Shown here: positions 5,174 to 64,000 of the stretch, piece after piece
Position numbering within the stretch: the stretch's first letter is position 1
Layout: every line of letters starts with the position of its first letter
NCBI GenBank assembly: GCA_902798205.1
Contig: CADBVV010000004.1
Location: 21,572-85,571, forward strand
Origin: an uncultured Pseudomonadota bacterium
GTDB lineage: Bacteria; Pseudomonadota; Alphaproteobacteria; Rs-D84
Direction: 5' to 3'
Length of the DNA stretch: 64,000 nucleotides
Made by a program: the position numbers and the translations under genes
Notes under the pieces: generated by a model
What the model was told of the DNA's origin: nothing
The model's database searches: none
The model's input: only the letters and a program-made list of their open reading frames with translations

Positions 5174-5310
5174 AAGGCAAATTATACGATTTTTTATAAA
5201 ATTTGATACAGGAACAAAACCCCAACAAAAACCATAAGCACACTTGAAAACACCCCGTAAAAATGCTATAATTATAGTGTTGGGTGTGGTGTATACCCAA
5301 GGGGTGTTTT

Positions 5311-7446: not shown

Positions 7447-7544
7447 TTTTTATATTAATTTGTGATATAATATAACGCAAGTTGGGACGCCTTTTTGGGT
7501 GTCTTTTTTTATTTTCCAAACATTTTTAACTAAAAGGATTTAAT

Positions 7545-48549: not shown

Positions 48550-49334
48550 TGAAAAAAATCTTGTGTTTAATATCTTTATTTGGATTGGTATTCGCAACAA
48601 ATTCATCTTTTGCTGATGATTTTGACGATTTATCTTTTGACAGTTTTGCCATCGTCAATGACACCGACAGTGATATGAATATAGAACAAGTATCTTTGAA
48701 TTCTGGTGCCGGGGTTGTTAATGTAAAACAATTTGATATTGCTGGTGTAATGTTGGGTATGAATTATGAAGAAATAAGCAATTTATTCTTAGACGGGAAT
48801 GGTCTTTATGCACCACGTCAAAAAAACAGTGTTATTTACACAATCAACAAAGAATGGAAATACAATCTGGATTACGAATGCCGTCAAAATAATGTATTTG
48901 TACCGGATCAATTGGAAAAATGTATAAATTCATTGGCACAAAATCGTGGTTTGTTATACATATCTGAAATACATTTGGAACGTACATTTACCGGCGAAAC
49001 AGTTGATATTTATTTAACCAGCAATGCAACAGATAATGTTGTATGGAAAGTCGTATATAAAAACGATGCCGATGCAATGGATGGCGAAAGTGAAAAATTT
49101 GAAAACCAACGTGAAAAAAAGATTCTGGCTTTCTGGCAAGGTGTCATTGATAAATATGGCACACCAAATTCAGGCGAAGATAAATGGATATCTTCTGAAA
49201 ATTCGTATGACCCAATGATGCAGGCTTTATACGGTCAATTAATTCTTGTGGATAATGGATTAAACGCAATTGATTCTTCTGAAAACATTCAAAAGGCGCG
49301 TGAAAACTTCCAGGCAAAACCATATGCTTTTTAA
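48549..49334 (+). CDS. hypothetical secreted protein (261 aa)
   Basis: ATG at 48549. Signal peptide MKKILCLISLFGLVFATNSSFA. Confidence 0.45.
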   Translation: MKKILCLISLFGLVFATNSSFADDFDDLSFDSFAIVNDTDSDMNIEQVSLNSGAGVVNVKQFDIAGVMLGMNYEEISNLFLDGNGLYAPRQKNSVIYTINKEWKYNLDYECRQNNVFVPDQLEKCINSLAQNRGLLYISEIHLERTFTGETVDIYLTSNATDNVVWKVVYKNDADAMDGESEKFENQREKKILAFWQGVIDKYGTPNSGEDKWISSENSYDPMMQALYGQLILVDNGLNAIDSSENIQKARENFQAKPYAF

Positions 49335-49677
49335 TAAAACATCTTATACAACTGGATTATATTCTGAATTTCTGGCGCGTATGTATTTACGTCTTCACGG
49401 ATATCGCATATTGAAAAGCAGATATATAACCGGAAAAAACACCAATCGTGCAGAAATAGATATTATTGCCAAACATAAAAACACCGTTGTATTTGTTGAA
49501 GTAAAAGCGCGACAAAATATTCCTGCGGCGTGGGACGCCATAACGCCGACACAATCAGCGCGTCTTCGTCGTGCCGCAGAAACATATTTAATTAACAAAC
49601 ATTGGATGGGCGATGCCCGTTTTGATGTAATAGTTGTTTGTGGTCATAAAATATATTGGGCAAAAAATGCGATTTAG
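49324..49677 (+). CDS. YraN/UPF0102-family endonuclease-like protein
   Basis: EIDIIAKHKNTVVFVEVKAR and RFDVIVV match the YraN pattern. ATG at 49324. Confidence 0.5.
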   Translation: MLFNKTSYTTGLYSEFLARMYLRLHGYRILKSRYITGKNTNRAEIDIIAKHKNTVVFVEVKARQNIPAAWDAITPTQSARLRRAAETYLINKHWMGDARFDVIVVCGHKIYWAKNAI

Positions 49678-49934
49678 TTTTTTATAACCGCACTTTTAAT
49701 CAATGTCACATCTTCTTTGATACCATCGATTTTTAATTGTAATTGACCGATACCAGATTCTAATATTGTTGTTCTGTTTTCCAATGATGTTATTCGTTGA
49801 TCTTGGCGTTCTATTTCTGCCAAAGAAGAATCTTGTCGTGCAACCCAATAAATTAATCCTGCAATAAAAACTATCAAAAACCAACTGTCACGCAAAGCAT
49901 CCAAAAACGTAAATATATTTTGTTGTTTTGTCAT
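49674..49934 (-). CDS. small membrane protein with coiled-coil (phage-associated, function unknown)
   Basis: One TM segment (WFLIVFIAGLIYWV) followed by a heptad-like region. At the edge of the T7-like module. Confidence 0.35.
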   Translation of the reverse strand: MTKQQNIFTFLDALRDSWFLIVFIAGLIYWVARQDSSLAEIERQDQRITSLENRTTILESGIGQLQLKIDGIKEDVTLIKSAVIKN

Positions 49935-49964
49935 TATACTATTAATAATTTACCACAATGTTTA

Positions 49965-50165
49965 TTATGTTGGATTATTACCTCTTTTTATAAAATTTTC
50001 TATTTGATGCACTAATGCGACCTGGGCCGCCCACCAGCGCAAATCATTGTCGGATACATTTTGTCCCAACACACGTTCTGTTGTTATATTCCGCAAATGA
50101 TTTAACACTTGTTTCCCAGACGGTGTATTAAAAATTCGTGCATAATGTTTTTCTATATCGTTCAT
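49965..50165 (-). CDS. hypothetical phage-associated small protein (66 aa)
   Basis: ATG start, immediately downstream of the portal gene. Confidence 0.3.
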   Translation of the reverse strand: MNDIEKHYARIFNTPSGKQVLNHLRNITTERVLGQNVSDNDLRWWAAQVALVHQIENFIKRGNNPT

Positions 50166-50176
50166 TATGTTCCCTT

Positions 50177-51400
50177 TTATATTGCCATTTCTTCACGTGC
50201 CATTTGCGCAATCGGTGCAATGTATTTTAATTCTGCGTCACTGTGCAAAGATATTTTATCTATCAATCCACGACGTGATAATATTTGCAATCCCCTTTCG
50301 CACAAAGGTCTTATAAATTCGTGCAATAAACGACCATACGTTGCGCCCAATATGCGAACCATATCAGAATTACGCGCTAATATTTCTGTTGCTGTCATTT
50401 CTTTGTCAGAAAGCAACCCAAGTCTGTCCGCCAAAAGCGAATGACGTATTCTGTCACGTAAATCACGCAGAACAATTTGGGACACATCAAAATCAGAACC
50501 ACTTTGTAATGGTGTTAAACCAGATGACCCCACTGCCTTTGGTATAATTGCGCCAGGGGTTAAATTGATATTGGATAAATTTATAACACCGTCATCATCG
50601 GCCTGCCATATACCACTGACCGCGATTGTTGCGTTTTTCAAAACCAATTCGACAACTTTGTTTGCTGTTTTAATATCTGGCAAAGCACGCAATACAGGTC
50701 CCCGACCATACAATTCGCCACTGACCAAAGACCAACGGAATATAATATATGGATTTGTTTCAAATGTTCCACGCGCAACAATATTATTTTCAATGTCACC
50801 ACCAACATCAACCCATGCCGTAAAATCTTTACCAATCAAAGCCTGAACCAATCTTATCGGTGTTTGTGGATTATTTTTTATTGTATCACGCATATTTACC
50901 GGAAATACAAAATCAGGATATTTTTCAATTAAATCACATGCCGGCAACGAAGTTGTATGAAATACCATACCTGGCAATATCGCAATATCTTTCATTGGTA
51001 TCGCAGTGAACGAAAATGCAGAATCTGCACCTATTGGATTTTCTGCCATAAACAAACATGCCGTTCCAAGAACAACCAAATCAATATAACATTGATGCAC
51101 AGTTGTATAAAAATTAGAATCGTTTAAATGTGCACGCAACATTGATGTCGCGAAATCTGCATCTGGCGATAAATCACTTTCACGAACCAGATTTATCCAC
51201 AAAGATTCTGGTGGTGTCAACAAAGAATACATAGATGCCGCCAAATTATCAACAGCATCTGCGGCAGTCGCATCAAACAAAGTTGCAGATTCTGTATCGT
51301 CTGTTGGTATGGTATAACGCATCGCGTCTTTCCAACGTGGCAACCATATTTCCCTTTCGTCTAATGCGCGTTTATATAATTGCATAAGATTTTTTTGCAT
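50177..51400 (-). CDS. T7-like portal (head-to-tail connector, gp8 homologue)
   Basis: PYIIFRWSLVSGELYGRGPVLRALPDIK... aligns with T7 gp8 PYIPIRMVRLDGESYGRSYIEEYLGDLRSLE... Downstream blocks are also conserved. 407 aa, shorter than T7 gp8. Confidence 0.6.
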   Translation of the reverse strand: MQKNLMQLYKRALDEREIWLPRWKDAMRYTIPTDDTESATLFDATAADAVDNLAASMYSLLTPPESLWINLVRESDLSPDADFATSMLRAHLNDSNFYTTVHQCYIDLVVLGTACLFMAENPIGADSAFSFTAIPMKDIAILPGMVFHTTSLPACDLIEKYPDFVFPVNMRDTIKNNPQTPIRLVQALIGKDFTAWVDVGGDIENNIVARGTFETNPYIIFRWSLVSGELYGRGPVLRALPDIKTANKVVELVLKNATIAVSGIWQADDDGVINLSNINLTPGAIIPKAVGSSGLTPLQSGSDFDVSQIVLRDLRDRIRHSLLADRLGLLSDKEMTATEILARNSDMVRILGATYGRLLHEFIRPLCERGLQILSRRGLIDKISLHSDAELKYIAPIAQMAREEMAI

Positions 51401-51421
51401 TTTAATATTCCTTTTGTTTGG

Positions 51422-52264
51422 TTATATTTTAAATTCTGTATTTGCACGAATTTGTTTTAATATTCTGGCATCCGATCGGAAAGGACCGGGAACCATAGAC
51501 ACCGCCCCAGCAACAGCATCCAGCCCATCATCGTGTTCTTTTGAGCCCATCGGTGAAAAGGCCAACATTTCTGATAACAACATTGTTTGTTTTATCTTTT
51601 CATGCATATAAAGATGCCCCGTTGACAATAACGGTTCCAATGTATTTAAAATTCGTGTTTCTTTTTTTGTATGATTTGAAATTTGTGTGATATTTATTTG
51701 AATCTTGCGATTAAGTGCAACATTACGCATAATTTCTGGCAGCGCATTTCCAATACCATTTATTTCTATGCCTATTCTTGTTAAATGGTGTTGTTGCATA
51801 AAATTCAACACACAATCACATTGATTACTTAAAGGGTGCATATCATCATCATCAACCCGCATATACAAAATATCATGCACAAAAACATTTCTGTTTTTAT
51901 CATCACGATAAATAAGTGCACAAACACTGCCATCGCAATTTTGTTGTCCTGTTGATGGGTCCCAATAAAATGCACATCCTGTGATAATATTATCCCCGAT
52001 TCGATTGTTATAAATATCGTCTTCATAAAAATGAACCGCGCCTGGATCCAGGTGAATTCGTTCTTCTGAAACATATTCCAACATCATCTGCGCTGAAAAA
52101 TGTCGTGGACCAACGATATCTTCCATTTCGTGTATTTTTTCCAGCGGAAACATTTCTGGCCAGGCCGGATTTCCGGCGCTGTCCAGTATTGGTATTTTCA
52201 ATTGTTTATACCCATGTAAAAAAGGTATTGAATTCTGAAAATTTTCGTTTAATCTAATGGACAT
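51422..52264 (-). CDS. terminase large subunit, C-terminal (nuclease) part (T7 gp19 residues after the ATPase domain)
   Basis: [20 protein letters not shown] matches T7 [36 protein letters not shown] matches [26 protein letters not shown] matches ILVIDPSGRG. The first ATG (MSIRL) is at 52264; the ORF-track start at 52339 is a TTG. Confidence 0.6.
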   Translation of the reverse strand: [280 protein letters not shown]

Positions 52265-53810
52265 GGACTTTACTCCGAAAACTTTACCTACTAATTTAGA
52301 AGCCGAACAAGCTGTATTGGCCGCGGTATTGATGAACAACCGCGCTTTGGAATCTGTATCGGACTTTTTGTTACCAGAACACTTTTCGCATCCGGCACAC
52401 CAAGAAATTTATCGTCTTGCAATGCGTCAATTTGCTGTCGGGGTACCATTTGATATAATCACTGCCAAAACATACCTTGAACAACAGGGAACATTGGAAA
52501 GTGTTGGTGGTGTTGAATATTTATCTAAATTGGCATCTGCAGGATCTACCGTTGTTAATGTTGAACATTATGGACGTATTGTTTTTGATAATGCACGCCG
52601 TCGTGATTTAATCCACCTGGGACAAAGCATTATCGATGATGCATATACCGAAGATTTGGATAAAACGGTAAACGCCCAAATAGAATCTGCAGAACAACAA
52701 TTATTCAATCTGGCCTCAACCGGACAAAGCGAACATAACGTTGTATCGTTGGCCGATGCTTTGCAAAGCGCTTTACAAGAAGCCGCCATTGCATACAAAG
52801 CAGATGGTAAATTATCAGGTCTTACAACCGGACTGGATGATTTAGATAAATCAATCAGTGGTTTACATCATTCCGATTTAATTATTATTGCTGGTCGTCC
52901 AGGTATGGGTAAAACAACATTGGCAATGAATATTGCTTTCAATGCTGCAAACGCTATTTTAAACGGACGCGCAAATAATCAATACAAAGGCGCAGTTGCT
53001 TTCTTCAGTCTTGAAATGTCGTATTCACAATTGGCGGCACGCGTATTGTCTTCCCAATCAAAAATACCGGCATCACATATGCGCGATGGTAATTTGACAG
53101 ACGAAGATTTTACAAAAATGTCACAATACAGTGATGCATTATCAAAGGTTCCTGTGGTTATTGATGACACAGCAAATATGTCTGTGGCGGCAATAAAAAC
53201 ACGCGCACGTCGTATTGCACGTCAATTTAATGGTTTGGCATTGATTGTTATCGACTATTTACAGTTGATGACTTCACCTGGTGGAAAACACAGCGACAAC
53301 CGTGTCCAAGAATTATCTGAAATCACACGTGGATTAAAGATATTGGCCAAAGAAATGGATGTTCCTGTTATTGCATTGTCCCAATTATCACGAAGCGTTG
53401 AACAACGTGATGATAAAAGACCTGTGTTATCAGATTTGCGTGAATCTGGATCTATCGAACAAGATGCGGATATTGTTATGTTCACATACCGTGAAGAATA
53501 TTATCTTGAAGGACGTTCCCCGGATAAAAAATTATCTGGCACCGCATCTGAACAATCTATGCAAAATTGGCAAAAACGGTTGGACAATGTTCGTAACAAA
53601 GCAGATATTATTATCGCCAAGAACCGTCATGGTAAACCAGAAACTGTTCATTTAAGTTTCACCGGTGAATATTACCTGTTTGATAACCTTAATCAATATG
53701 GCGTTCAACCTTTCCCTGATACCAACATTGAACAACAATATACCGCCCCTGTTGACAATAACATACAAACAGTTGCCGATATTAATGATATTCCTGATGA
53801 TATGATTTAA
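52257..53810 (+). CDS. dnaB: replicative DNA helicase DnaB
   Basis: N-terminal LEAEQAVLAAVL, Walker A GRPGMGKTT, LIVIDYLQLM and SQLSRSVEQRDDKRPVLSDLRESGSIEQDAD motifs. 517 aa. Confidence 0.85.
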   Translation: MDMDFTPKTLPTNLEAEQAVLAAVLMNNRALESVSDFLLPEHFSHPAHQEIYRLAMRQFAVGVPFDIITAKTYLEQQGTLESVGGVEYLSKLASAGSTVVNVEHYGRIVFDNARRRDLIHLGQSIIDDAYTEDLDKTVNAQIESAEQQLFNLASTGQSEHNVVSLADALQSALQEAAIAYKADGKLSGLTTGLDDLDKSISGLHHSDLIIIAGRPGMGKTTLAMNIAFNAANAILNGRANNQYKGAVAFFSLEMSYSQLAARVLSSQSKIPASHMRDGNLTDEDFTKMSQYSDALSKVPVVIDDTANMSVAAIKTRARRIARQFNGLALIVIDYLQLMTSPGGKHSDNRVQELSEITRGLKILAKEMDVPVIALSQLSRSVEQRDDKRPVLSDLRESGSIEQDADIVMFTYREEYYLEGRSPDKKLSGTASEQSMQNWQKRLDNVRNKADIIIAKNRHGKPETVHLSFTGEYYLFDNLNQYGVQPFPDTNIEQQYTAPVDNNIQTVADINDIPDDMI

Positions 53811-53876
53811 TTTTTACTTGCCAAGTCTGTAAAAATTGACTAATATTTTGTCAACATGATATCAAGGAGTCAGATT

Positions 53877-54884
53877 ATGGCACAAGAAGAAATCATTTTT
53901 CCAAATAATATTCGCAATATTCGTGCAAGCAAGGGCCTGAAAATGACCGAATTGGCACGTCGTGCTAATTTATCACTTTCTGCTGTATCCAAAATTGAAA
54001 AAGGCGTTCGTCGTCTTAATCAAAAACAGTTATTAAATGTATGCACAATATTGGGTTGCAAATTGTCAGATATATTTATTCATGAATCTGATTCTGTTGC
54101 ACAAAATTGGCAAAATGAAATCAAACGCCGTTTAACTGACAACGAAGACAGCGGTTTAAAGATTTTCGGTTCTGGCCTTCGCAAGATTCGCCAACGCAGC
54201 GAAAAAACTATTGCCCAGGCTGCCAAGGCTGCAAAAATGACATTGTCCGTTTATCATAAAATCGAAGTCGGGCAACGCGAAGTTTATGAAAACGAAATTG
54301 AAACTTTGGCGCATGCTTTTGGATATACTGCGTCTGAAATGTTTGATGAAATCGCGAAACTTTACAAGGCTGGCGAATTAACAAAACAAATTAACAAAGT
54401 AAAAGAACGTGTTAAATCTGTTTTGGAACCGGTTAACCCAATGTCTGGTTTGGACGTTCATGGTGGTCTTTATGGTGCACAACTTTACGATAATGCACGT
54501 AAAAAATTGGTTCCTGTATTTGGGAAACCATCCGGAAAAAACATCCAATTGAAAAAATCTGACGAAACAATGATTGTTGCACCTGCTGCATTAGAAGGTC
54601 GCAACGGAATCTATGCTGTTATACCTAATTCCAAAAGATCTGGTGGATTTATACCAGAATCTTCATATGTTTTCGTAGATGCAACAGCTAAACCAAATGT
54701 TGGTGATTTGGCCGTATGCATAAACGAAGATTTCGCAAAATTATCATCCGATGATGTCGTTAACGCACAAATTGTTGTCGTACGTCAAGACAGTCATGGA
54801 AAAACCTTTGGCCATGTTTCTAACCCAGATGAAAAAGTCACAGGAAAAACATTGCACAAGGTTGTTATGATAGTTATGCAATAA
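53877..54884 (+). CDS. CI-like repressor: two HTH_XRE domains plus C-terminal S24 (LexA-like) peptidase-like domain
   Basis: Tandem HTH segments (LKMTELARRANLSLSAVSKIEKG; RSEKTIAQAAKAAKMTLSVYHKIEVG). C-terminal beta-rich domain. ATG at 53877 after AAGGAG. Confidence 0.5.
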   Translation: MAQEEIIFPNNIRNIRASKGLKMTELARRANLSLSAVSKIEKGVRRLNQKQLLNVCTILGCKLSDIFIHESDSVAQNWQNEIKRRLTDNEDSGLKIFGSGLRKIRQRSEKTIAQAAKAAKMTLSVYHKIEVGQREVYENEIETLAHAFGYTASEMFDEIAKLYKAGELTKQINKVKERVKSVLEPVNPMSGLDVHGGLYGAQLYDNARKKLVPVFGKPSGKNIQLKKSDETMIVAPAALEGRNGIYAVIPNSKRSGGFIPESSYVFVDATAKPNVGDLAVCINEDFAKLSSDDVVNAQIVVVRQDSHGKTFGHVSNPDEKVTGKTLHKVVMIVMQ

Positions 54885-54914
54885 TATGCATAAATCAGGG
54901 ACAGGAGAGATAAC

Positions 54915-55559
54915 ATGCAACAACAAGCTCATACAATCGCACAGCGTTTATTGAACCTTTACCGCCAGGCACACGTTATCGAAGGTGGCTGGACGGCTGT
55001 TAACAAGGTTTTCATTGCAGAATCAAACGATGCCCAGGTTATATCCGAATTGGAAAATATGCCGACTGGTAAAAAGCTTGTTGCACACATAAACAATCTT
55101 CGCAGTGGCAAAACACCTATGGATTCAATTGATAAAGATTTATTGCCATATGGTGGTTTAATGTCTTCTGATTCAAAATCAAATGCTTCTTTGACAGAAA
55201 ACGAAATCAATCAATTAAAATTGTTATTGGATGAATTCCAACCAACAACAGATAATCTTAATACAATCAAACAATTACCTTTTGTTCAAAAATTCGGCAA
55301 CGATTGGATTGACAGCATTGAATCTGCAATTGCATTTGATAAAGATATGATTTCCAAATGGAAAACTGTTGCACAAACAGACAAGGCTTATCGTATCTGG
55401 GACACTGCCAAGGAATTAGTATCTGAAACATTAACAGAACGCAATCGCGCACAAATCCAAGCAGACATGCCTGAATTCGAAACATATCTTCCTATGTTTG
55501 GCGATACAGGTAATGAAATGTTATCGAAACTTCGCACATTTATGTCATCGCTTGCATAA
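54915..55559 (+). CDS. hypothetical protein (214 aa)
   Basis: ATG with a GGAGAG Shine-Dalgarno. Its stop is 1 nt from the stop of the convergent terminase-N ORF. Confidence 0.4.
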   Translation: MQQQAHTIAQRLLNLYRQAHVIEGGWTAVNKVFIAESNDAQVISELENMPTGKKLVAHINNLRSGKTPMDSIDKDLLPYGGLMSSDSKSNASLTENEINQLKLLLDEFQPTTDNLNTIKQLPFVQKFGNDWIDSIESAIAFDKDMISKWKTVAQTDKAYRIWDTAKELVSETLTERNRAQIQADMPEFETYLPMFGDTGNEMLSKLRTFMSSLA

Positions 55560-55560
55560 A

Positions 55561-56202
55561 TTATTCCGTTTTATATATCGTGTTTTGTGTATGTGGGGTT
55601 CCAATGAATATCATTGTCCCCTTTGGCGATAATATAAAATCTAATTCACGCAATCTTTCACGCAGATTTATTCGTTTTTGTGCTGTATTGCAAGTGTTTG
55701 GCACTTCGACGTCATCACAAATTATCAAGTCTGCACGCATACCAGTTATGTTACCGGAAATTCCCTGACAAATAACAGATGGTTCACGAATCCCTATTGG
55801 TCTGTTAATTGTTATTTTATGTGTTCCCCACTCTTTTTTTACATCTGGGACAATACCTTCACACCACGGATGGTTTTCCAGTATGTTTTTTATATGTGCA
55901 ACCATACGCGATGCCAACCCTGATTCCGCAGATAATATTAGAATTCTGCTTTCTGGTTTATGATACAAAACACACGCAGCGAACACACCGACAACTGTTG
56001 ATTTACCAGAATGCCGAAAAGCGTTTAACAATCCACGATGCGGTTCATCATTAAACACACCAACCAGAAAACTTATTATCTGTTTATGATGTTCTGGTGT
56101 TTTAAGCCCTAAAATTTTATTCCATGCATCCAGAAAATTAAATGCTTCCGTAATCGTCATTGTTTTCATCATCGGCATCTTCATCAACCGAACCATAATC
56201 AT
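55561..56202 (-). CDS. terminase large subunit, N-terminal ATPase part (T7 gp19 homologue), ending right after the ATPase domain
   Basis: LLNAFRHSGKST (Walker A) matches T7 ILQAFRGIGKSF. RADLIICDDVEVP (Walker B) matches RADIIIADDVEIP. IFIGTPHTQNTIYK matches IYLGTPQTEMTLYK. Confidence 0.65.
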   Translation of the reverse strand: MIMVRLMKMPMMKTMTITEAFNFLDAWNKILGLKTPEHHKQIISFLVGVFNDEPHRGLLNAFRHSGKSTVVGVFAACVLYHKPESRILILSAESGLASRMVAHIKNILENHPWCEGIVPDVKKEWGTHKITINRPIGIREPSVICQGISGNITGMRADLIICDDVEVPNTCNTAQKRINLRERLRELDFILSPKGTMIFIGTPHTQNTIYKTE

Positions 56203-56674
56203 TTATCAAACTGTCCAGCACCGATACCAGGTTATAATACAACCCCAACACCGCACCACCAGACAATTTATCTTCTATGGTTTGAATAACATAATCTATT
56301 TTATTCAAAAGATTATCGTGAACATTTGACCACTGTGCCAAATCAAGATTTATGGTTTGGATATCCTGTAATGCAGCCAACAAAAAATTGAAATCAGAAT
56401 TCAAATCTTCTGGATCTATTTTTGATGTTGGTTGATAATCGATAACGCGCGCTAATTCTACCTGACGAAAAATATCTATGTTTTTATTAATCGCTGGCGC
56501 ATTTGCAAACACAACCACACCACCGGTAAAATTATCATTTGGATTAACATCGTATTGCGTATTATTCAATATTTCATTATCAATACTTACCTTGATATCA
56601 GATTCTTGGAAAAACGGAAAAGAAAATACAAATTCTGTATTTTCACCGTCCCCAATATAAGATATTTTATACAT
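56138..56674 (-). CDS. T7-like tail-fibre N-terminal domain protein (gp17 N-domain-like, 178 aa)
   Basis: MYKISYIGDGENTEFVFSFPFFQESDIKVSI matches the conserved tail-fibre N-terminal adaptor motif (T7 YQLDGSNRDFNIPFEYLARKFVVV). No receptor-binding part follows. Confidence 0.5.
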   Translation of the reverse strand: MYKISYIGDGENTEFVFSFPFFQESDIKVSIDNEILNNTQYDVNPNDNFTGGVVVFANAPAINKNIDIFRQVELARVIDYQPTSKIDPEDLNSDFNFLLAALQDIQTINLDLAQWSNVHDNLLNKIDYVIQTIEDKLSGGAVLGLYYNLVSVLDSLINDYGSVDEDADDENNDDYGSI

Positions 56675-56683
56675 TGATTCCCC

Positions 56684-57031
56684 CTATCCTGCTATTTTAT
56701 CGATATTGGCTAACCATGTTTTTAATATATTAGGTTTTTGAACTTTTAATTTTTTAATCTTATCGATGTTTTCTTGGTATTTTTCATCATACGGTTTTGC
56801 TGTTTCGGAACGCAGACGTTTAAGCACTGCATTTTCTGATAACCCAACACCAGTATTTCCAGACGCACCATATTTTGCACGTTGGGCAGACAAAACTTTC
56901 TTTATCAAATTTGTTTTTGTGGCTTCATCTTCTGCCATTTGTGCCAATATTTTTTGTCTTTGATTTTCTGCCGATTTTTTAGATTCTTGATAATCTAAAA
57001 CTTTTGTAACATCTGATACTAATTGTCCCAT
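56684..57031 (-). CDS. hypothetical virion-associated protein (115 aa)
   Basis: Position between the gp12-like and fibre genes. Coiled-coil-like. Confidence 0.3.
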   Translation of the reverse strand: MGQLVSDVTKVLDYQESKKSAENQRQKILAQMAEDEATKTNLIKKVLSAQRAKYGASGNTGVGLSENAVLKRLRSETAKPYDEKYQENIDKIKKLKVQKPNILKTWLANIDKIAG

Positions 57032-57046
57032 ATTTAAATCTCCTTA

Positions 57047-58759
57047 TTAAATTGAATACCATCCATCAACTGTGACAGACAATATGGTGGCGTTTAATTG
57101 TTCATCGCTGGACAACGTCCACAAAGGTTCTATTGTGTTAATTTGACATCCCAATAAATTAAGCGACAAATCACCGCTGTATCCCGGATTATCTGGTTCA
57201 TAAATATAATTAGGAATTTCAACACGATAATTATTTATGAATAAAGTCTTTGTGTTTATTACACGAACAGACATCTTGCGCGCCCGAACTTTCTTTGGAT
57301 TATGATTATTAACAATCATTGGCAACGCAGATATTTTATATGAAAAATTATATGCCTGACAATCATCCAAACAATCATCATCAAATTTTTCAAGATAAAA
57401 ATTATTCTGACGTTTAACCACGACATATGTTTTATTGTCAAAAACAGATACATATTTAAAACATCCGTCTGTAATGTATTTTCCCCACGCATTGATTTCT
57501 GTATTTGGGTGTTTATTCAAAACAGCCATATATCCATCATCCATCACAATAAATAATTGGTGTGTTGATTGATTAAACGCCAGGCTTACCGGCGTATTCA
57601 TTAAATGTTTAGACAACAAACACAAATCATTTGCATTATAATGTTGACTTAAATCATCTAAATCTAATTCACGCACATCTTTGCCTGATTGCGATATAAA
57701 GACGGTTGCGCCTTCTATCTGTTGTGGTGGCAAATAGACATCTGTTCGACTGCCAACCGATGTGTGTTGTTTAACATTTACATTTGATGGTGTTAATGGC
57801 GCGTTTAAAATCGCCCATTCACCAACAGAAGTTAATATTTGTAAATTTTCACTGCTGACTATCGTTGCTATCTGATGATGTTGCGAAGATAACAGTGTTA
57901 AAAATATTGCTTCGTCATCTAAACCCGTGCCGGCATCAAAGTTGGTATAATCGCCAACCTTTGACATCCATAAATTATTTGGCGCAGATTTTGTTCCGCC
58001 AAAAACCAATCTGTTTTGATGAAACGATACAGACATTGGCCAACCGCGCTTATTACTGAATGCCGCAACATACCAATCATAAAGTGCAGTCCCAGGAAAT
58101 GAAAAACTGCTGTTTGTATAAACTGTTACAGAACGCGCATTTTGAACAGATTGCACAATCCATTGAATATCATTAACCAACAATCTTTCGTTAACCCAAT
58201 CGTTTGACCAAAAATCTTTGTTGGTGGTAAAAACCGCGTGATTATTATCAATATCACTGTTAGATATAGTAATAGACACACCATCCATATCATCAAAACG
58301 CATAAATGGAATATTTACACTCATGTTTTGATTTACATGAAAATTGAATTGTTTTATATGAAAGCCGTCTGAATCTTTTGTAAATATCTGTGGTTTTAAA
58401 TCAGGATGCACAAAAAATATAGTATTAAATCTTTGTGCGTATTGTATTTGTTTTAAATTGATACCGTTCCATGAATTTGTAACAGATGTTATTTTTACAT
58501 CATTTTCATAAACATCTATGGTTTGGCCGTATATCACCAATAAATATTTTTCTGTTTCGCTGATTTTGAACGGCACCAATATCGCATCATTTGGTATTTG
58601 TGATATTTGTTTCAAACCAGATCTGCGCTTTAATCCACCAGATTGCAAAACATCCATATTTTCTAATACAGACAACCCATTAATACTGTTTGCGGCATAA
58701 AATTCTGGGGCAACTTCCCCAAAAGAAAACATATTTTGTGTTTTAAGAAAATTTCCCAT
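57047..58759 (-). CDS. T7-like tail tubular protein B (gp12 homologue, shortened)
   Basis: INGLSVLENMDVLQSGGLKRRSGL...EKYLLVIYGQTIDVYEN matches T7 gp12 VNGWSSETEGLQKRPPL...EQYYAVFTGSGIRVFDL. FHQNRLVFGGTKSAPNNLWMSKVGDYTNF matches FFRNRLGFLSGENIILSRTAKYFNF. Confidence 0.55.
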   Translation of the reverse strand: MGNFLKTQNMFSFGEVAPEFYAANSINGLSVLENMDVLQSGGLKRRSGLKQISQIPNDAILVPFKISETEKYLLVIYGQTIDVYENDVKITSVTNSWNGINLKQIQYAQRFNTIFFVHPDLKPQIFTKDSDGFHIKQFNFHVNQNMSVNIPFMRFDDMDGVSITISNSDIDNNHAVFTTNKDFWSNDWVNERLLVNDIQWIVQSVQNARSVTVYTNSSFSFPGTALYDWYVAAFSNKRGWPMSVSFHQNRLVFGGTKSAPNNLWMSKVGDYTNFDAGTGLDDEAIFLTLLSSQHHQIATIVSSENLQILTSVGEWAILNAPLTPSNVNVKQHTSVGSRTDVYLPPQQIEGATVFISQSGKDVRELDLDDLSQHYNANDLCLLSKHLMNTPVSLAFNQSTHQLFIVMDDGYMAVLNKHPNTEINAWGKYITDGCFKYVSVFDNKTYVVVKRQNNFYLEKFDDDCLDDCQAYNFSYKISALPMIVNNHNPKKVRARKMSVRVINTKTLFINNYRVEIPNYIYEPDNPGYSGDLSLNLLGCQINTIEPLWTLSSDEQLNATILSVTVDGWYSI

Positions 58760-58777
58760 ATAAAAACTCCTTGTATA

Positions 58778-59296
58778 TTAAAATCTGGAATCTATTAACG
58801 AAAAACTGCCGATATCAGATTGTTTTGTTGTCGTGCTGTCTATGAATTTTGCAGATTGATATTCTGATTCATACAAAGCCGTCATCATTTTAAATACATT
58901 GGCATCACCGATAAGCGGGATACAGAATTCCATTGCCAATTTCGTGGCCAATAATGTAGCAAAATATCCTGGGAACATTTCTGGTTCGGTTTTCACAACG
59001 GCCAATATTGTTATTGTATTACCTGCCGCTTTTATTTTATTGCCATTGATTTGACCATTACATTTTAAAATTCTTAATACTTCACTTGGAATTAAAAAAT
59101 CGTTGTCTTGGGTTTTATTCAAAACCAATGTTTTTGTGGCAAAACGCCATGGAAACAGCGACAACAAAGTGTCTACAGTTGGTTCAAACAAAGTTCTGGC
59201 CAATTGTGCACTGGCGCTGTCTTCACGCCAAGATTGAATTGGTTTTTCGCCCAATTTTAATAATGCCATTGAACATAAATCTATTTTTGTAAACAT
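58778..59296 (-). CDS. T7-like tail tubular protein A (gp11 homologue)
   Basis: MALLKLGEKPIQSWREDSASAQLARTLF...LSLFPWRFA matches T7 gp11 ILASIGEPPVSTLEGD..AANARRIL...QSRGWTFN. ATG at 59296 after AGGTG; the ORF-track start at 59302 is a GTG. Confidence 0.5.
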   Translation of the reverse strand: MFTKIDLCSMALLKLGEKPIQSWREDSASAQLARTLFEPTVDTLLSLFPWRFATKTLVLNKTQDNDFLIPSEVLRILKCNGQINGNKIKAAGNTITILAVVKTEPEMFPGYFATLLATKLAMEFCIPLIGDANVFKMMTALYESEYQSAKFIDSTTTKQSDIGSFSLIDSRF

Positions 59297-59366
59297 ATTC
59301 ACACCTATTTATTAAATAAAAAAATGGGGGACAAATATCCCCCAACAATATTCAACGAAAAAATTA

Positions 59367-59597
59367 TTAAGATAACGCACCAACAGTTACAACGCCTTCT
59401 GCAACTGTAATAACCTTTATCGCAGAACCATTTGAACCATTGATTAAAATGATATCGCCAGTGTTCATAAGATTTTTCAAACTGGAAAAATATCCAGATG
59501 CGGTTATTGTTGCCAATGTTACATTTTCTTTATAATGCCACAAAGTAAAACCGTTTGCGTATGCAATCACGGACAAGTTTTTATTTTGAAAAGCCAT
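59367..59597 (-). CDS. hypothetical small virion or decoration protein (76 aa)
   Basis: ATG with an AAAGGA Shine-Dalgarno. Beta-rich composition. Sits between the capsid and gp11-like genes. Confidence 0.3.
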   Translation of the reverse strand: MAFQNKNLSVIAYANGFTLWHYKENVTLATITASGYFSSLKNLMNTGDIILINGSNGSAIKVITVAEGVVTVGALS

Positions 59598-59619
59598 CTT
59601 TTTTCCTTTTGGTTATAAA

Positions 59620-60444
59620 TTATTGTGCGTCATCATCACATTTGATACGAACGATACCTTCGTTATCAATCAATACAGCACCTTGGGACATACTGTTGCT
59701 GATAAAGTGTGCAGCACGTTCACCATGCCATGTGATATCTGTTTTAACTTCTTGACCACATGCATGACCGATACTGGATGAATGATAAATAAAGCAATCA
59801 CGATCATCGTCAGTTAATGGCAAAGAATTACACAAAATCCAATTTACACCCAACCATTTACGTGATTCGCAACCATCAACCAAAGGTGTGGCACCACCAA
59901 CATAATCAGCAGAAACAAATTCATCCAACGCCAACAATTCGTTCCATTGATGTACACCAACAACAGCAAATCTGCGACCGTCATCTGGAACATCATTAGA
60001 ATTCAATTTTTCCAATGCGGCCATAATTAATGCTTTTGTTAAACCGGTTGAATAATCACCAACATATTGTGTTGCAGAATTCATTGCATTGATAATTAAT
60101 TCATCTGTTTTGCGACCCAATGCATATGCACCAGCAGAAGCAACAACGCGACGTTCATCAACATTTGTTTTTAATTCATCCAATGCATCAACCCAATCGC
60201 CCGCATAGTAATCTTGCAATGTACATTCAACAGGTGTGTGATTCAAATTCATCACAGGAACAATACCATGACGTGATTTTGTGCTGGCAATACCTTTGCC
60301 AACTTTTTGGAAAGTAGTAGAAGTCCCTACAACCCCAGATTTGCTGCGAATTGTAGAGCGTAATTTTGTGCCCATTTGCTGATAAGCCAAATGAACATCT
60401 GCTTCAAATTGTTTTACAAACACTTGATCTACAGACATAGACAT
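59620..60444 (-). CDS. T7-like major capsid protein (gp10 homologue, 274 aa)
   Basis: VFVKQFEADVHLAYQQMGTKLRSTIRSKSGVVGTSTTFQKVGKG matches the T7 gp10 pattern LFLKVFGGEVLTAFARTSVTTSRHMVRSISSGKSAQFPVLGR. AAAGGA Shine-Dalgarno. Confidence 0.55.
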   Translation of the reverse strand: MSMSVDQVFVKQFEADVHLAYQQMGTKLRSTIRSKSGVVGTSTTFQKVGKGIASTKSRHGIVPVMNLNHTPVECTLQDYYAGDWVDALDELKTNVDERRVVASAGAYALGRKTDELIINAMNSATQYVGDYSTGLTKALIMAALEKLNSNDVPDDGRRFAVVGVHQWNELLALDEFVSADYVGGATPLVDGCESRKWLGVNWILCNSLPLTDDDRDCFIYHSSSIGHACGQEVKTDITWHGERAAHFISNSMSQGAVLIDNEGIVRIKCDDDAQ

Positions 60445-60618
60445 AAGAAAATCCTTTTTGTTTAAATTAAAAGGCGCAATATGCGCAACTTGAAAATTTT
60501 TGATTTGTGGTTATGCGAAAACAATCGCGCCATAAATACAAAACACAAAAAAGGGTCCAAAAATGGATTATCCAATAAAAAATTCAGTTAGACATATGAT
60601 ATCTAACTGAAAAATTTA

Positions 60619-60652
60619 TCAAAAAAATCCCCAAAACCAGCGGTCTTGGGGA
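60619..60652 (-). terminator. intrinsic terminator downstream of the H1-like gene
   Basis: CCCCAA...TTGGGG stem followed by a T-run on the minus strand. Confidence 0.5.
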
Positions 60653-60689
60653 TAATATAAAAAATCACGCAAAATATTTGCGCAAAATC

Positions 60690-61010
60690 TTATTTTTTCT
60701 TAACTACTTTTTTAGCAGCTGGTTTTTTTGCAGGTGCTTTTTTAGCAACTACTTTTTTTGCAGCTGGTTTTTTAGCAGCAACTTTTTTTGCAGGTGCTTT
60801 TTTAGCAACTACTTTTTTAGCAGCAACTTTTTTTGCAGGTGCTTTTTTTGCAACTACTTTTTTTGCAACTGGTTTTTTAGCAGCAACTTTTTTTGCTACA
60901 GGTTTTTTTGCAGCTGGTTTTTTAGCAGCAACTTTTTTTGCAGGTGCTTTTTTTGCAGCTGGTTTTGCAGCTGGTTTTGCACATGCACATTTTTTCTTTA
61001 ATCCGAACAT
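60690..61010 (-). CDS. Lys/Ala-rich histone H1-like DNA-binding protein ([10 protein letters not shown] repeats)
   Basis: ATG at 61010 with an AAGGAGAG Shine-Dalgarno. Product [31 protein letters not shown]... The plus-strand ORF 60678..61001 is its antisense shadow. Confidence 0.7.
60703..60990. repeat. imperfect tandem repeats (15- and 30-bp units) encoding the AKKxA repeats
   Basis: Visible periodicity of ...gcagctggttttttagcagcaactttttttgcaggtgcttttttagcaactac... units. Confidence 0.8.
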
Positions 61011-61106
61011 GTTTCTCTCCTTATAAAGTTTTGGACAGAACAAAATTATTTTGTTCTTAATTATATTTTATATGAATCAAAACAAATAGTAAAGAATAAA
61101 AATTAT

Positions 61107-61763
61107 TTATGAATATAATTTTTTAAATCCATTTTCAATTTTACGAACATATTCTGGATCTTGATCACGCCAATATTTTGGATCGCGCATCATATTACGC
61201 AACATATCATCAGATAAATTTTCTGTTGCATTTTTATCGGTTAAAACAGTTGGTTCAAAAGATTGCATCATCTTGTACACGCCTTGTATTCCCTGGGGTG
61301 TAGAGCACAACTCTTCGAATGCAGATGCGGGCAAATATTTTTCACCGAATGATTTTATTTCACGCATTGCATCATTCATTTTTTCATCACCACCAAAAAA
61401 ATTTTTTAATTCATTAATTGCATTTGTTTGATTTTGTAATTCAAATAAATTTTTTAATGTTGGTTGTAAAAATTCTTCAGCGATTGAATAAATTTGTTCA
61501 ACTTGTTTTGATGTTAAACCAATTTCATGAAATTTATTGCGAACCGATTCGTCATCAAACAAATCATTTGTTGGATATTCAGATGCATTTTCTGGAACAC
61601 CAATTGCATGATTAAATTTTTGTTTTGCATTTTCATCACTGTCATCATTTGGCACAGATATCATATTGCTCATTTTCTTTTCTAATTCACAATATGATTT
61701 TATTAATGCAGATGTATTTAATTCGCCTTTGTCATCAAGAAATTTTTCCGGAACGTTTTCCAT
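61107..61763 (-). CDS. acidic protein, possible capsid scaffolding protein (positional analogy to T7 gp9)
   Basis: Asp/Glu-rich helical protein upstream of the capsid gene. AAAGGA Shine-Dalgarno. No sequence motif. Confidence 0.3.
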   Translation of the reverse strand: MENVPEKFLDDKGELNTSALIKSYCELEKKMSNMISVPNDDSDENAKQKFNHAIGVPENASEYPTNDLFDDESVRNKFHEIGLTSKQVEQIYSIAEEFLQPTLKNLFELQNQTNAINELKNFFGGDEKMNDAMREIKSFGEKYLPASAFEELCSTPQGIQGVYKMMQSFEPTVLTDKNATENLSDDMLRNMMRDPKYWRDQDPEYVRKIENGFKKLYS

Positions 61764-61953
61764 TTGTTTTTCCTTTGGTTGAAGATTCTTGTTTAAGAAA
61801 ATAAATTCCCGATAAAGTAAATATTGTTTGCATCATTGTAAAAATATCTTCATCGCCTATTAAATAAGCCCCAACGGCAGATATAATACCGACACTTGAC
61901 ACAACATAAGTTTTTTTATCTTGTAAATATCCGCCTTTGATTATTTTATTCAT
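61735..61953 (-). CDS. holin-like protein (two TMDs plus basic C-terminal tail)
   Basis: ATG at 61953 with an AAAGGA Shine-Dalgarno. TM segments TYVVSSVGIISAVGAYLIG and IFTMMQTIFTLSGIYFL. Tail KGKTNGKRSGKIS. Immediately downstream of the lysin. Confidence 0.35.
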   Translation of the reverse strand: MNKIIKGGYLQDKKTYVVSSVGIISAVGAYLIGDEDIFTMMQTIFTLSGIYFLKQESSTKGKTNGKRSGKIS

Positions 61954-61967
61954 CGCATATCCTTTAT

Positions 61968-62378
61968 TTATAAATAAAACAAAATATCTTCGCATTCTGA
62001 TATATATCCACGTGCCATTGCCCATTGTGGAATAACATTTGCATGATGAAATTTTGTTGCACCGAATACAGTATCTTGTAAATTACCACGCATCATTGTT
62101 TGAACGACACGCAAACACATTTGGAATTTTCTGTCATTTGCAGCAACATTTAAATTTTTATTACGTGATGATTTTGAATTTAAACATTCAAATAAATCAT
62201 CATCTTTTGCAATAGATTCAAAAGATTTATCATATTTAATATGAATATTGTTAATCATCGAAGCCATTGCTTCCACTATTTGCAAAGACAAAGCATCTGT
62301 TTCTGCAAATATTATACGTGCCAATTTATATGATACGATTTGTGTATCATCGTTATTTGTTATTAAATTTAACTGCAT
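61968..62378 (-). CDS. SleB/CwlJ-family cell-wall hydrolase (endolysin)
   Basis: ARIIFAE...QIVEAMASMINNI...FECLN...DTVFGATKFHHANVIPQWA matches Hydrolase_2 conserved blocks. First ATG at 62378; the ORF-track start at 62432 is a TTG. Confidence 0.5.
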   Translation of the reverse strand: MQLNLITNNDDTQIVSYKLARIIFAETDALSLQIVEAMASMINNIHIKYDKSFESIAKDDDLFECLNSKSSRNKNLNVAANDRKFQMCLRVVQTMMRGNLQDTVFGATKFHHANVIPQWAMARGYISECEDILFYL

Positions 62379-62785
62379 GTTCAAGACCTGTTTTTTTGTT
62401 AAAAAAAAGCCCGCACAAAAAAGTGCAGGCAAAAATAAAGAATAAAAAAAGCCGCAATATTGCGGGCAAAATTTCTATTCTTGATGTGTTATATAATATC
62501 ACAAATTGACATAAAAGTCAAGGGCATATTACGACACTTTTAAATTTATTACTTTATTTTTCTATATAAATGTGCCAAAATCACATTGTCAGCAAGAGTT
62601 TTGCTGATGGGACTAGAAACCCATATAGCTTCGTCTGGAATGACGTTAAAATCTCCAACCTAATGTGGTTGGAGGGTCGCGAATATATAGAATAAGCGCG
62701 CAATTTAAGCTAAATTGTTTCTAGCCTCCAACCGCCCGATTTTTCTCTGGCGGTTCTTTTTGGTTTACGTCGGGGGAAAGATCAA

Positions 62786-63532
62786 ATGAAACGTTTTTTA
62801 ATATTATTATCAATATTGTTTTGCACAACAGTATTTGCACATACCATTGAATGGTATGTTGATGGCACACTGCTTTCAACGACAACATGCGAATCTGGGG
62901 ATGACATAACACCACCAACCGCCCCAACCAAATTCGGATACACCTTTAAAGGATGGGGAAATTATGCACCGATTGAATATCTTGAAAGCACAGGAACACA
63001 ATGGGTTGATACTGGTATTGCAATAACAAATGCAACATTATATACAGAAATCATGCCAATGCGAACATTCATAAAAAATTCGATTATTGGATATAATTAT
63101 AATAATGGTGCACACAGATTATCATTGAGCGGAAATTCATCCGGGAATATAACACTTGGATATGGTGATAGCAACAGCAGTTATCAATATATTAATTTTC
63201 TAAAACTAGATGAAAAAACCGCTATAAAAATACAGTATCTGAAAGATATTGTGTATCTGTCTGCGAACGATGTAATTCTATTTACGGCATATGGCACCAG
63301 AAGCGATCCTATCAATATTTTTGTAAATGGTGTCAATGCATTATCAAATACAAGTGGTCTTAACGGACGTTTTTTTTCTGCAAAGATATGGAACAATGAT
63401 ACAGGTGTCCTTGTTCGTGATTTCATTCCTGTCCTTGATAACAACGGCACACCATGTATGTATGACAAAGTGGAAGGTAAATTCTATTACAACGCCGGAA
63501 CAGGTCAATTTATCGCAGGTCCTGTATTATAA
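62786..63532 (+). CDS. secreted protein with N-terminal Listeria-Bacteroides repeat
   Basis: Signal peptide MKRFLILLSILFCTTVFA followed by IEWYVDGTLL...PPTAPTKFGYTFKGWG (flg_new-type repeat). Confidence 0.5.
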   Translation: MKRFLILLSILFCTTVFAHTIEWYVDGTLLSTTTCESGDDITPPTAPTKFGYTFKGWGNYAPIEYLESTGTQWVDTGIAITNATLYTEIMPMRTFIKNSIIGYNYNNGAHRLSLSGNSSGNITLGYGDSNSSYQYINFLKLDEKTAIKIQYLKDIVYLSANDVILFTAYGTRSDPINIFVNGVNALSNTSGLNGRFFSAKIWNNDTGVLVRDFIPVLDNNGTPCMYDKVEGKFYYNAGTGQFIAGPVL

Positions 63533-64000
63533 TGAAACACAAATGGTTATTATTTTTAATAATGCCAATATCTGCATTTGCAGACATGGTTTGTAATACA
63601 AATATTGTCAGATACAATGCATTTTATGAAAGAAATAAATATACATGTGCGCATGGGCAATATCTGCCCGCAAATACATTGGGGTGTGTTTCTTGTCCAA
63701 CGGGTTTTACATGTAATGGCGGAACATTTGAATTTAATCCAGATTATTTTCAGGGAATTGATTTTAATGTTCAAAACATATCAAACACACAAATAAACAA
63801 TATATGTTCGGCAAATTTCCCGGTAAAAATAGTTGGGCTATACGAACCAAACATTCACACATGCACACCGGGGTATTATTTGCCGGCAAATGTTGATGAA
63901 TGTGTGCCATGCACACAAAACAATAAATGTGTTGGTGGAACATACACTTTTAATGAAACTGTTACCCAGGGTATAACACAATGTGAATCTGGAACCTTTG
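63532..64000 (+). CDS. secreted cysteine-rich repeat protein (paralogue family), 3' end beyond window
   Basis: ATG overlapping the previous stop (TAATG). Signal peptide MKHKWLLFLIMPISAFA. Repeated C..CPxG..CxGG units (CVSCPTGFTCNGG, CVPCTQNNKCVGG). Confidence 0.5.
   Translation, partial: MKHKWLLFLIMPISAFADMVCNTNIVRYNAFYERNKYTCAHGQYLPANTLGCVSCPTGFTCNGGTFEFNPDYFQGIDFNVQNISNTQINNICSANFPVKIVGLYEPNIHTCTPGYYLPANVDECVPCTQNNKCVGGTYTFNETVTQGITQCESGTF

Follow-up and report, generated by a model that had tools for sequence, protein, structure and literature searches.

A T7-like large terminase kept in two genes around a cellular dnaB operon across a lineage of gut Alphaproteobacteria

How is a phage packaging gene retained once a block of genes on the opposite strand has parted its two halves, and what might the halves encode? 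This question is raised by a 64,000-nucleotide stretch of contig CADBVV010000004.1 from an uncultured alphaproteobacterium of the order Rs-D84 (the window, to which all coordinates refer), in which a T7-like large terminase (TerL) is present as two reverse-strand open reading frames (ORFs), TerL-N and TerL-C. The 3.3 kb between them carries on the forward strand dnaB, a regulator gene (hth) whose product has two helix-turn-helix (HTH) domains, and an ORF that we call unk214. A sequence-only reading of this DNA had left two alternatives, a functional two-piece enzyme or a recent insertion that disabled packaging; conservation, intact ORFs and low ratios of nonsynonymous to synonymous substitution (dN/dS) favor the former. 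Anatomy, conservation and regulatory motifs establish a two-gene terminase, selected throughout the lineage, with a nested cellular dnaB operon. The features of the split region are these:

55561-56202, reverse strand: TerL-N, the ATPase core through motif III (Walker A GKS, Walker B DDVE, GTPH), 213 aa, assigned from NCBIfam, PHROG and alignment with T7 gp19.
54915-55559, forward strand: unk214, all-alpha, clade-restricted and without a family match, the last gene of the dnaB operon, 214 aa.
53877-54884, forward strand (ORF from 53856, 342 aa): regulator with two HTH domains (Pfam HTH_3/HTH_31) and a C-terminal domain without a family; conserved start MAQEEI at 53877.
53818-53854, forward strand: hth promoter TTGCCA-17-TAATAT, overlapped by the palindrome TTGAC-N9-GTCAA, conserved in a 77-locus alignment.
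52263-53810, forward strand (ORF from 52257, 517 aa): dnaB, replicative helicase of cellular alphaproteobacterial type, assigned from NCBIfam, start from alignment.
52228-52255, forward strand: promoter-like TTGAAT-16-TAATCT of dnaB, inside TerL-C codons 1-15 and ending 7 nt before the dnaB ATG.
51422-52264, reverse strand (ORF to 52339): TerL-C, the last ATPase-domain strand or strands, lid and RNaseH-like nuclease; the in-frame ATG at 52264 gives 280 aa.

Relatives were collected by scanning GTDB, one genome per species. At least 569 were recovered, and the best 80 of these (69-93% identity) were compared in detail. These 80 are rumen or gut Alphaproteobacteria throughout, many of them named Candidatus Enterousia, a group that corresponds to the order Rs-D84 and has genomes of about 0.75-1.0 Mb (PMC12306168). 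Our literature search found no paper on a phage-like cluster or a split terminase in Enterousia or Rs-D84. Domains and families were assigned with Pfam, NCBIfam and PHROG profiles and RNA families with Rfam (E<=1, positions 49000-64000), and dN/dS was calculated by the Nei-Gojobori method for pairs with dS<1. The concatenated halves were modelled with AlphaFold2, compared by Foldseek and aligned with 21 unsplit TerL proteins.

That the two ORFs are parts of a T7-like large terminase is borne out by profile matches to its N- and C-terminal portions. TerL-N matches the NCBIfam model termin_lrg_T7 (NF033889) at positions 4-190 of 500 (222.6 bits, cutoff 150) and phrog_38 at positions 275-459, and TerL-C matches the same two profiles at positions 333-500 and 481-713, respectively. 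TerL-N contains FRHSGKS (Walker A), CDDVE (Walker B) and GTPH (motif III), and alignment with T7 gp19 confirms that it covers this protein from Walker A through the strand of motif III, ending at the gp19 residues GTPQTEMTLY. TerL-C, as had been proposed, resumes the homology, picking up at GYTTIIWP and running to the C-terminus, and its nuclease domain (Pfam Terminase-T7_RNaseH-like, PF22530; 36.7 bits, cutoff 27) retains the nuclease acids D102, E167, D246 and D249. The fold and the motif order – Walker A, Walker B, motif III, lid, RNaseH-like nuclease – are those of the T7-type TerL proteins (T7 gp19, PhiV-1; NF033889; PDB 4BIJ, 8DGC), but T7 gp19 is a single polypeptide of 586 aa, whereas here there are two genes 3.3 kb apart in all relatives. 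The annotated start of TerL-N overlaps a fibre-domain gene by 65 nt (56138-56202, reverse strand), and because this upstream extension holds a stop codon in 17 relatives the true start is probably Met13 or Met15, at 56166 or 56160, predicting a protein of about 199-201 aa.

The position of the break can be seen by comparison with the closest unsplit relative, P0123 (498 aa, 50% identity), in which it corresponds to a variable loop of about 12 residues. P0123 reads ...GTPHTYFTIY-ADSVRAEVDESA-PFLAGFERLEIP at this point, and TerL-N ends ...GTPHTQNTIYKTE* (the asterisk being its stop codon); TerL-N thus runs three residues past the homologous TIY, with its stop after TIYKTE, and homology in TerL-C starts 13 residues in. 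The same loop is 0-16 residues long and rich in insertions and deletions in the 21 unsplit TerL proteins, with which the fused halves align collinearly, and because the break falls at such a loop no conserved or homologous TerL sequence is missing. In the AlphaFold2 model of the fused halves (predicted local distance difference test score 88.4, predicted template modelling score 0.83) residues 213/214 fall in a loop of lower confidence that links strand 191-200 (motif III, GTPH) to strand 233-237; two helices come next (254-273), and the strands of the nuclease lie from about residue 300 on. The top Foldseek match is TerL of the T7-like phage PhiV-1 (E=1e-27). ATPase-only structures (P74-26 and the N-terminal domain of T4 gp17) align to the fused model over about 285-300 columns, and the cut therefore lies inside the ATPase domain, not at the hinge between ATPase and nuclease. 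Alignment and model together place a clean division of the gene within the predicted ATPase domain, in a variable surface loop right after motif III.

The split and the order of the cassette genes are the same in all 80 species genomes wherever the contig reaches, and the uninterrupted terL that had been suggested for comparison is found in none of these close relatives. A protein search with TerL-N returned 870 clusters, and the 120 listed are all 198-212 aa long, 81-91% identical and from metagenome-assembled genomes of gut Alphaproteobacteria. The ORFs are closed and full-length in 79/80 loci for TerL-N and 74/75 for TerL-C; Walker A, Walker B and motif III show no variation (80/80), nor do the nuclease acids (75/75). 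The sequence-only reading had also called for dN/dS of both halves, and the values, 0.06-0.09 for TerL-N and 0.10-0.19 for TerL-C, indicate purifying selection. Those for the neighboring genes are 0.03-0.06 for portal (69-97% identity), 0.07 for capsid (78-97% identity across 72 species), 0.04 for dnaB, 0.07-0.09 for hth and 0.11-0.14 for unk214, the capsid and portal being conserved at least as strongly as DnaB. The gene order that is conserved is hydrolase, small membrane ORF, scaffold, capsid, orf76, gp11-like, gp12-like, orf115, fibre N-terminal domain, TerL-N, [unk214, hth and dnaB on the opposite strand], TerL-C, portal, Bbp19-like ORF and orf86.

What lies between the halves is confirmed by the ORF table and family scans to be dnaB, an HTH protein gene and an ORF without a family match, all on the other strand. 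DnaB passes the equivalog model NF006606 at full length (617.6 bits, cutoff 540) as well as TIGR00665 (507, cutoff 385), but fails the phage_DnaB model (413.5, cutoff 498.65), and its best matches in annotated collections are from alphaproteobacterial replicons at 49% identity, with named phage helicases at about 42%. Its best match in a phage database (48%), MT835812 'Bacteriophage sp.', proved to be unrelated DNA with 53% GC and no other shared gene. With genomes of 0.75-1.0 Mb, these bacteria probably have no replicative helicase gene besides the nested dnaB. The regulator had been described as a CI-like repressor with a double HTH and an S24 part; the two HTH domains stand, but Pfam finds no Peptidase_S24 in the whole protein, nor in residues 177-342 (166 aa) even at E<=1. 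The palindrome TTGAC-N9-GTCAA at its promoter is likely to be a putative auto-operator of hth, and has no second exact copy within the window. A role in defence was also considered and rejected, as PADLOC gave generic HTH and P-loop matches only.

Both junctions of the cassette are tight, with neither intergenic space nor room for a terminator. The convergent stops of TerL-N and unk214 lie 1 nt apart (55559/55561), as had been described, and in about 75 species they are mostly -4 to +6 nt apart. The head-to-head overlap of the dnaB and TerL-C starts is likewise present, but the conserved dnaB start is the ATG at 52263 rather than 52257, and the overlap therefore amounts to 2 nt of a CATG that carries both start codons. 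CATG is common to both divergent starts in 62/75 relatives, and in about 75 species the starts either overlap by 2-14 nt or stand about 20 nt apart. The promoter-like element upstream of dnaB has the general form TTGAAn-16-TAnnnT, the strict promoter pattern being present in 39/75, and since it ends 7 nt before the ATG the dnaB mRNA may be leaderless. TerL-C codons 1-15, in which the element lies, have a third-position identity of 0.78 compared with a gene mean of 0.45, and among the genes examined no stretch is more conserved at synonymous sites than the 60 nt just before dnaB, in which TerL-C residues 1-20 are encoded. TerL-C in turn has its Shine-Dalgarno sequence, GGAGT, in dnaB codons 4-5. 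Because the promoter or ribosome-binding signal of each sits inside the other gene, dnaB and TerL-C share control sequences.

Could the two halves nonetheless be joined into one chain? No intein family is found by Pfam, and the 3 and 13 non-homologous residues at the break leave no room for intein halves. No group I, group II or other Rfam intron family is found at E<=1 in positions 49000-64000, and there are no direct or inverted repeats around the cassette. Since no intein room, intron family, bracketing repeats or recombinase gene was found, two polypeptides are expected.

A second split terminase occurs in a lineage represented by two loci, L009 and L010 (1.47-Mb contig), in which a TerL at 45% identity is divided at the same loop into two adjacent ORFs on the same strand. 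These ORFs (L009 10001-11480 and L010 10001-11441) overlap by ATGGGTGA; the second piece begins with a proline-rich repeat, with a KFPEAPKFPEPPKFPEA repeat at the break. No capsid or portal lies within 10 kb, and the gene adjoins defence-like genes (OLD-TOPRIM, M78/Beta_protein). A rough neighbor-joining tree does not group this TerL with that of Enterousia, and the split is therefore probably independent; it may be a recent frameshift. The tree also speaks against the idea that an adjacent split of the L009/L010 kind came before the nesting of the cassette. From the second lineage it is clear that this loop tolerates a break, and the order of events in Enterousia cannot be read from it. A further candidate split, P0129 (a 192-aa match), has instead an in-frame stop in a single contig.

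The two halves belong to a structural cluster of about 13 kb, the remaining features of which, together with a distal unit, are as follows:

62493-62521, reverse strand: late promoter TTGACT-17-TATTAT with an extended -10 (TGnTAnnAT), upstream of the hydrolase gene.
62379-62492, reverse strand: late leader of about 113 nt with two tandem hairpin plus U-tract terminators (62452-62465 and 62409-62430).
61968-62378, reverse strand: cell-wall hydrolase, endolysin-like, the first late gene (Pfam Hydrolase_2, E=1.8e-4; phrog_938; conserved ATG at 62378 from alignment).
61735-62025, reverse strand: small membrane protein, holin-like to judge from its position and hydrophobic segments (no Pfam or PHROG family match).
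61107-61763, reverse strand: scaffolding protein (the ortholog in L001 has Pfam Phage_T7_Capsid; phrog_3742).
60690-61043, reverse strand: basic protein with AKKPAAKK repeats, HC2 histone-H1-like, 117 aa (Pfam HC2, E=6.6e-15), in some relatives only.
59620-60444, reverse strand: major capsid protein (Pfam Phage_capsid_2, E=2.5e-73).
59367-59597, reverse strand: orf76, a small conserved ORF of the structural module (phrog_18004), in 74 relatives.
58778-59302, reverse strand: tail tubular protein A-like, gp11-like (phrog_394, E=7e-33; Pfam Tube in orthologs).
57047-58759, reverse strand: tail tubular protein B-like, gp12-like (phrog_376, E=3e-80).
56684-57031, reverse strand: orf115, conserved in the cluster (no Pfam or PHROG family match).
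56138-56674, reverse strand: tail-fibre N-terminal (tail-attachment) domain protein (Pfam Phage_T7_tail, E=5.5e-4; phrog_1640, E=6e-13).
50177-51400, reverse strand: portal, the head-to-tail connector (Pfam Head-tail_con, E=2e-79).
49965-50165, reverse strand: orf66, a Bbp19-like small phage protein (Pfam Phage_Bbp19, 27.6 bits, cutoff 25).
49674-49934, reverse strand: orf86, a membrane-anchored coiled-coil protein, the last gene of the element (weak PHROG matches only).
7443-8126, forward strand: distal unit of promoter (7443-7471), leader terminator (7484-7510) and fibre-like gene (7545-8126; Pfam Mtd_N, 193 aa).

The sequence-only reading had taken these genes for a prophage with a replication/lysogeny cassette, a view with which the cellular type of DnaB and the lack of S24 do not agree. 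There is no integrase, repressor/cro switch of its own, phage polymerase or primase, or recombinase gene in the cluster; integration, excision and replication genes are also absent from its 10-kb flanks, there are no att-like repeats at the cluster, and the flanks are housekeeping genes (yraN, bamA, lipB). The absence of integrase and phage replication genes, the fixed site among housekeeping genes and vertical inheritance all argue that the cluster is a domesticated phage-derived element, predicted from its gene content to be like a gene transfer agent (GTA). The left flank has been rearranged in this genome and in L011, since most relatives have lipB there; adjoining the element is a gene whose 248-aa product looks secreted and has a Listeria-Bacteroides repeat (Flg_new; 62786-63532, forward strand), and just outside it is a weak Rfam match to sRNA-Xcc1 (62667-62741, forward strand; 34.9 bits, gathering score 53, E=0.006).

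As to ancestry, the nearest unsplit TerL proteins form a compact clade of about 450-510 aa at 36-51% identity, from hosts of 34-74% GC, and their clusters are arranged as is typical of T7 (portal, scaffold, capsid, gp11, gp12, ..., TerL, hydrolase) or in a circularly permuted form of that order. Because these relatives keep the T7 order, the Enterousia order, with the hydrolase first and portal after TerL-C, is derived. Phage_Bbp19 in orf66 and Mtd_N in the distal gene point to a BPP-1-like as well as a T7-like ancestry. The unsplit relatives in IMG/VR (loci L122-L172) constitute a large family of compact T7-order clusters, many in predicted proviruses of 10-18 kb, and it may be that some of them, too, are no longer phages but domesticated. 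Within the cluster itself, the HC2-like gene sits between scaffold and capsid; tblastn finds it at two GTDB loci only, and L002 has a 128-aa ORF in the same position. Its product might condense DNA. Three consecutive terminator-like hairpins precede the capsid gene (60583-60685, reverse strand) and a strong one follows orf76 (59325-59344, reverse strand), hairpins that recall the terminator after the T7 capsid gene.

How the cluster might be expressed is suggested by the region that heads it. All relatives examined (61/61) have the late pattern TTGACT-N14-TGnTAnnAT before the hydrolase gene, and in 54/54 complete loci it is found only there and essentially nowhere else in the locus. Exactly two leader terminators are present in 49/62 leaders, compensatory changes are seen in the first leader stem, and the folding energy of the leader is -31.4 kcal/mol (z = -4.78). 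In lambdoid phages, late operons that are freed by antitermination likewise begin with a strong promoter and terminators directly behind it, whereas phages of the T7 type normally rely on an RNA polymerase of their own. The likeness to lambdoid PR'/tR'/Q control lies in the strong conserved promoter and the intrinsic terminators within about 110 nt, ahead of lysis and morphogenesis genes; the differences are that there are two tandem terminators here and that no Q-like protein or put-like RNA was found, Pfam, PHROG and Rfam scans of the cluster genes giving no Q, N, RfaH or put family, with the rest of the genome outside the search. Neither a second late promoter nor an hth operator stands before TerL-C or portal in the window, and for the late promoter this holds in the 54/54 complete loci too. 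In closer relatives only, a TTGAC-N6-GTCAA arrangement lies inside the late promoter, a faint hint that the HTH protein might touch it.

The 20-nt promoter core AATTTGTGATATWATATAAC occurs twice in the window compared with 0.12 expected, and the second copy (7457-7476) stands before the Mtd-like gene, about 54 kb from the cluster among housekeeping genes, between a 720-aa ORF and ackA/recG. This distal promoter-terminator leader is kept in 10 relatives (42-77% identity) with covarying stems, suggesting that the late cluster and the Mtd-like gene form one regulon. The 720-aa ORF directly upstream (5284-7446, forward strand) has no Pfam or PHROG match and has syntenic counterparts of 711-718 aa in L174-L177; as pure conjecture, it could be a further particle component such as an internal or ejection protein.

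We consider it probable, from these comparisons of sequence, that the two halves are a working two-polypeptide large terminase of a vertically inherited, domesticated T7/BPP-1-like cluster. TerL-N, with Walker A, Walker B and motif III, and TerL-C, with the last core strand, lid and nuclease, would join non-covalently as the packaging ATPase-nuclease of GTA-like particles that package DNA and are not a self-propagating virus. Late transcription would be freed by antitermination, and a terminator-resistant polymerase would read past TerL-N and on through 3.3 kb antisense to unk214, hth and dnaB, expressing TerL-C, portal, orf66 and orf86; we infer such read-through as the simplest model because the late promoter never stands before TerL-C or portal. 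If it occurs, full competence for packaging depends on transcription that meets the helicase operon head-on. How dnaB came to be nested may be explained by rearrangement or insertion at a past or later gene boundary, with subsequent fixation. A bolder version, which we offer tentatively and think unlikely to hold in full, is a commitment switch coupled to an obligate heterodimer motor: antisense late transcription would be the sole route to TerL-C and portal and would shut down dnaB and the regulator, coupling particle production to replication arrest, and the ATPase fold would be shared by two chains.

Several observations count against this proposal. TerL-C is clearly less conserved than TerL-N (49-85% compared with 69-93% identity), the in-cluster fibre gene consists of the N-terminal attachment domain only, and no small terminase, antiterminator or DNA-ejection (gp14-16-like) protein was recognised among the scanned cluster genes. 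Read-through is drawn solely from the absence of a second late promoter; third-position conservation is also mildly raised in dnaB codons 1-15 (0.61, mean 0.48), and a weak internal promoter for TerL-C inside dnaB is an alternative. To our knowledge no TerL split inside the RecA-like core is known to work, and the whole case is one of sequence conservation.

Some of these points would suit a reading in which the halves are functional but form no joint motor, having been separately exapted, or in which the cluster makes DNA-free protein-delivery or tailocin-like particles. The cut inside the ATPase fold, the faster evolution of TerL-C, the missing small terminase and ejection proteins, and the L009/L010 terminase that stands without capsid or portal nearby are all compatible with it; nevertheless, both halves always accompany portal, scaffold and capsid, genes that are constrained more strongly still, all ATPase motifs and nuclease acids are invariant as a working terminase requires, and it is hard to see what use the lid and last core strand of TerL-C would be without the TerL-N core. 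We regard this reading as doubtful, though well ahead of those that remain. Rejoining of the halves, by split-intein trans-splicing, RNA splicing, or programmed excision or inversion of the cassette, has precedents in the herpesvirus UL15 exons and the skin and nifD elements. Split-intein 'fractured genes' (PMC2677866) are another. It is here very improbable, with no room for an intein, no Rfam intron family at E<=1, no repeats and no recombinase gene in the cluster, and with excision removing dnaB.

An active temperate podovirus or true prophage, with its remaining genes elsewhere, is similarly hard to credit: IMG/VR lists these regions as viral and the unsplit relatives include clusters in predicted proviruses of 25-37 kb, but the chromosomal position and flanks are fixed across species, divergence parallels that of host genes, integrase, att-like repeats and phage replication genes are lacking, and the co-regulated fibre gene lies some 54 kb off among housekeeping genes. 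The alternative raised by the sequence-only reading, that a replication/lysogeny cassette was recently inserted into a prophage terL, disabling packaging and leaving the halves to decay, fits the topology seen in a single window, and an HTH regulator beside dnaB does resemble a phage early region. Against it are the same split in the 80 closest species and in many independent metagenome assemblies, intact ORFs, invariant catalytic residues, dN/dS of 0.06-0.19 and a DnaB of cellular type, and we give it almost no credence. Least likely of all is an error of assembly, or a bin in which a phage contig was wrongly combined with a chromosomal dnaB fragment, for which one might cite the uncultured source and unusually tight junctions; identical junction geometry recurs in dozens of assemblies that different groups made independently with different assemblers, in contigs of up to 532 kb. 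Conservation, invariant motifs and low dN/dS thus effectively exclude that the cassette went in recently and disabled packaging, that the halves are pseudogene debris, or that the arrangement is an assembly artefact.

We return to the favored two-polypeptide terminase and compare it with known systems. In herpesviruses the terminase gene UL15 consists of two exons whose intervening intron carries UL16 and UL17 on the opposite strand, and is spliced to one mRNA and protein; the two cases have in common a terminase ATPase gene broken by an opposite-strand block throughout a lineage, but here Rfam finds no splicing signal, two polypeptides are expected and the break point is another. The nrdA gene of phage Aeh1 is split by a homing endonuclease gene. 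Like it and the split-intein fractured genes (PMC2677866), the terminase would be an essential enzyme encoded in two ORFs parted by foreign DNA and still believed functional, whereas the insert here is the cell's own opposite-strand dnaB operon, not a homing endonuclease, and there are no intein halves. With Bordetella phage BPP-1 the element shares Mtd_N in a distal fibre-like gene and Phage_Bbp19 in orf66, here alongside portal and tail genes of T7-like type; a diversity-generating retroelement, an integrase and early genes are not seen, and the Mtd-like protein has only 193 aa. The GTAs RcGTA, BaGTA and FpGTA likewise have chromosomal, vertically inherited clusters of phage structural, packaging and lysis genes under purifying selection without replication or integration genes of their own, and a dispersed, co-regulated accessory locus (here the Mtd_N gene), the present element being a candidate GTA. 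RcGTA is of HK97-like ancestry, whereas the ancestry here is T7/BPP-1-like, the host a genome-reduced gut bacterium and the terminase in two pieces around a probably essential gene. The FpGTA of Faecalibacterium was reported in 2026 as the first podovirus-like GTA (PMC12946183).

If the two pieces do cooperate, a viral packaging ATPase can remain functional when its RecA-like core is divided between motif III and lid, and the pair would offer a ready-made heterodimer in which to separate ATP hydrolysis from the movements of lid and nuclease. The cluster is a new candidate for a podovirus-derived GTA, from an order of uncultured gut and rumen bacteria with reduced genomes, and the retention under strong selection of about 1.4% of a genome of less than 1 Mb argues for an important function, for example DNA exchange in a lineage that is losing genes. 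The interleaving of a probably essential replication gene with a virus-derived one, through common start-codon and promoter sequence, is unusual and would make the element hard to delete.

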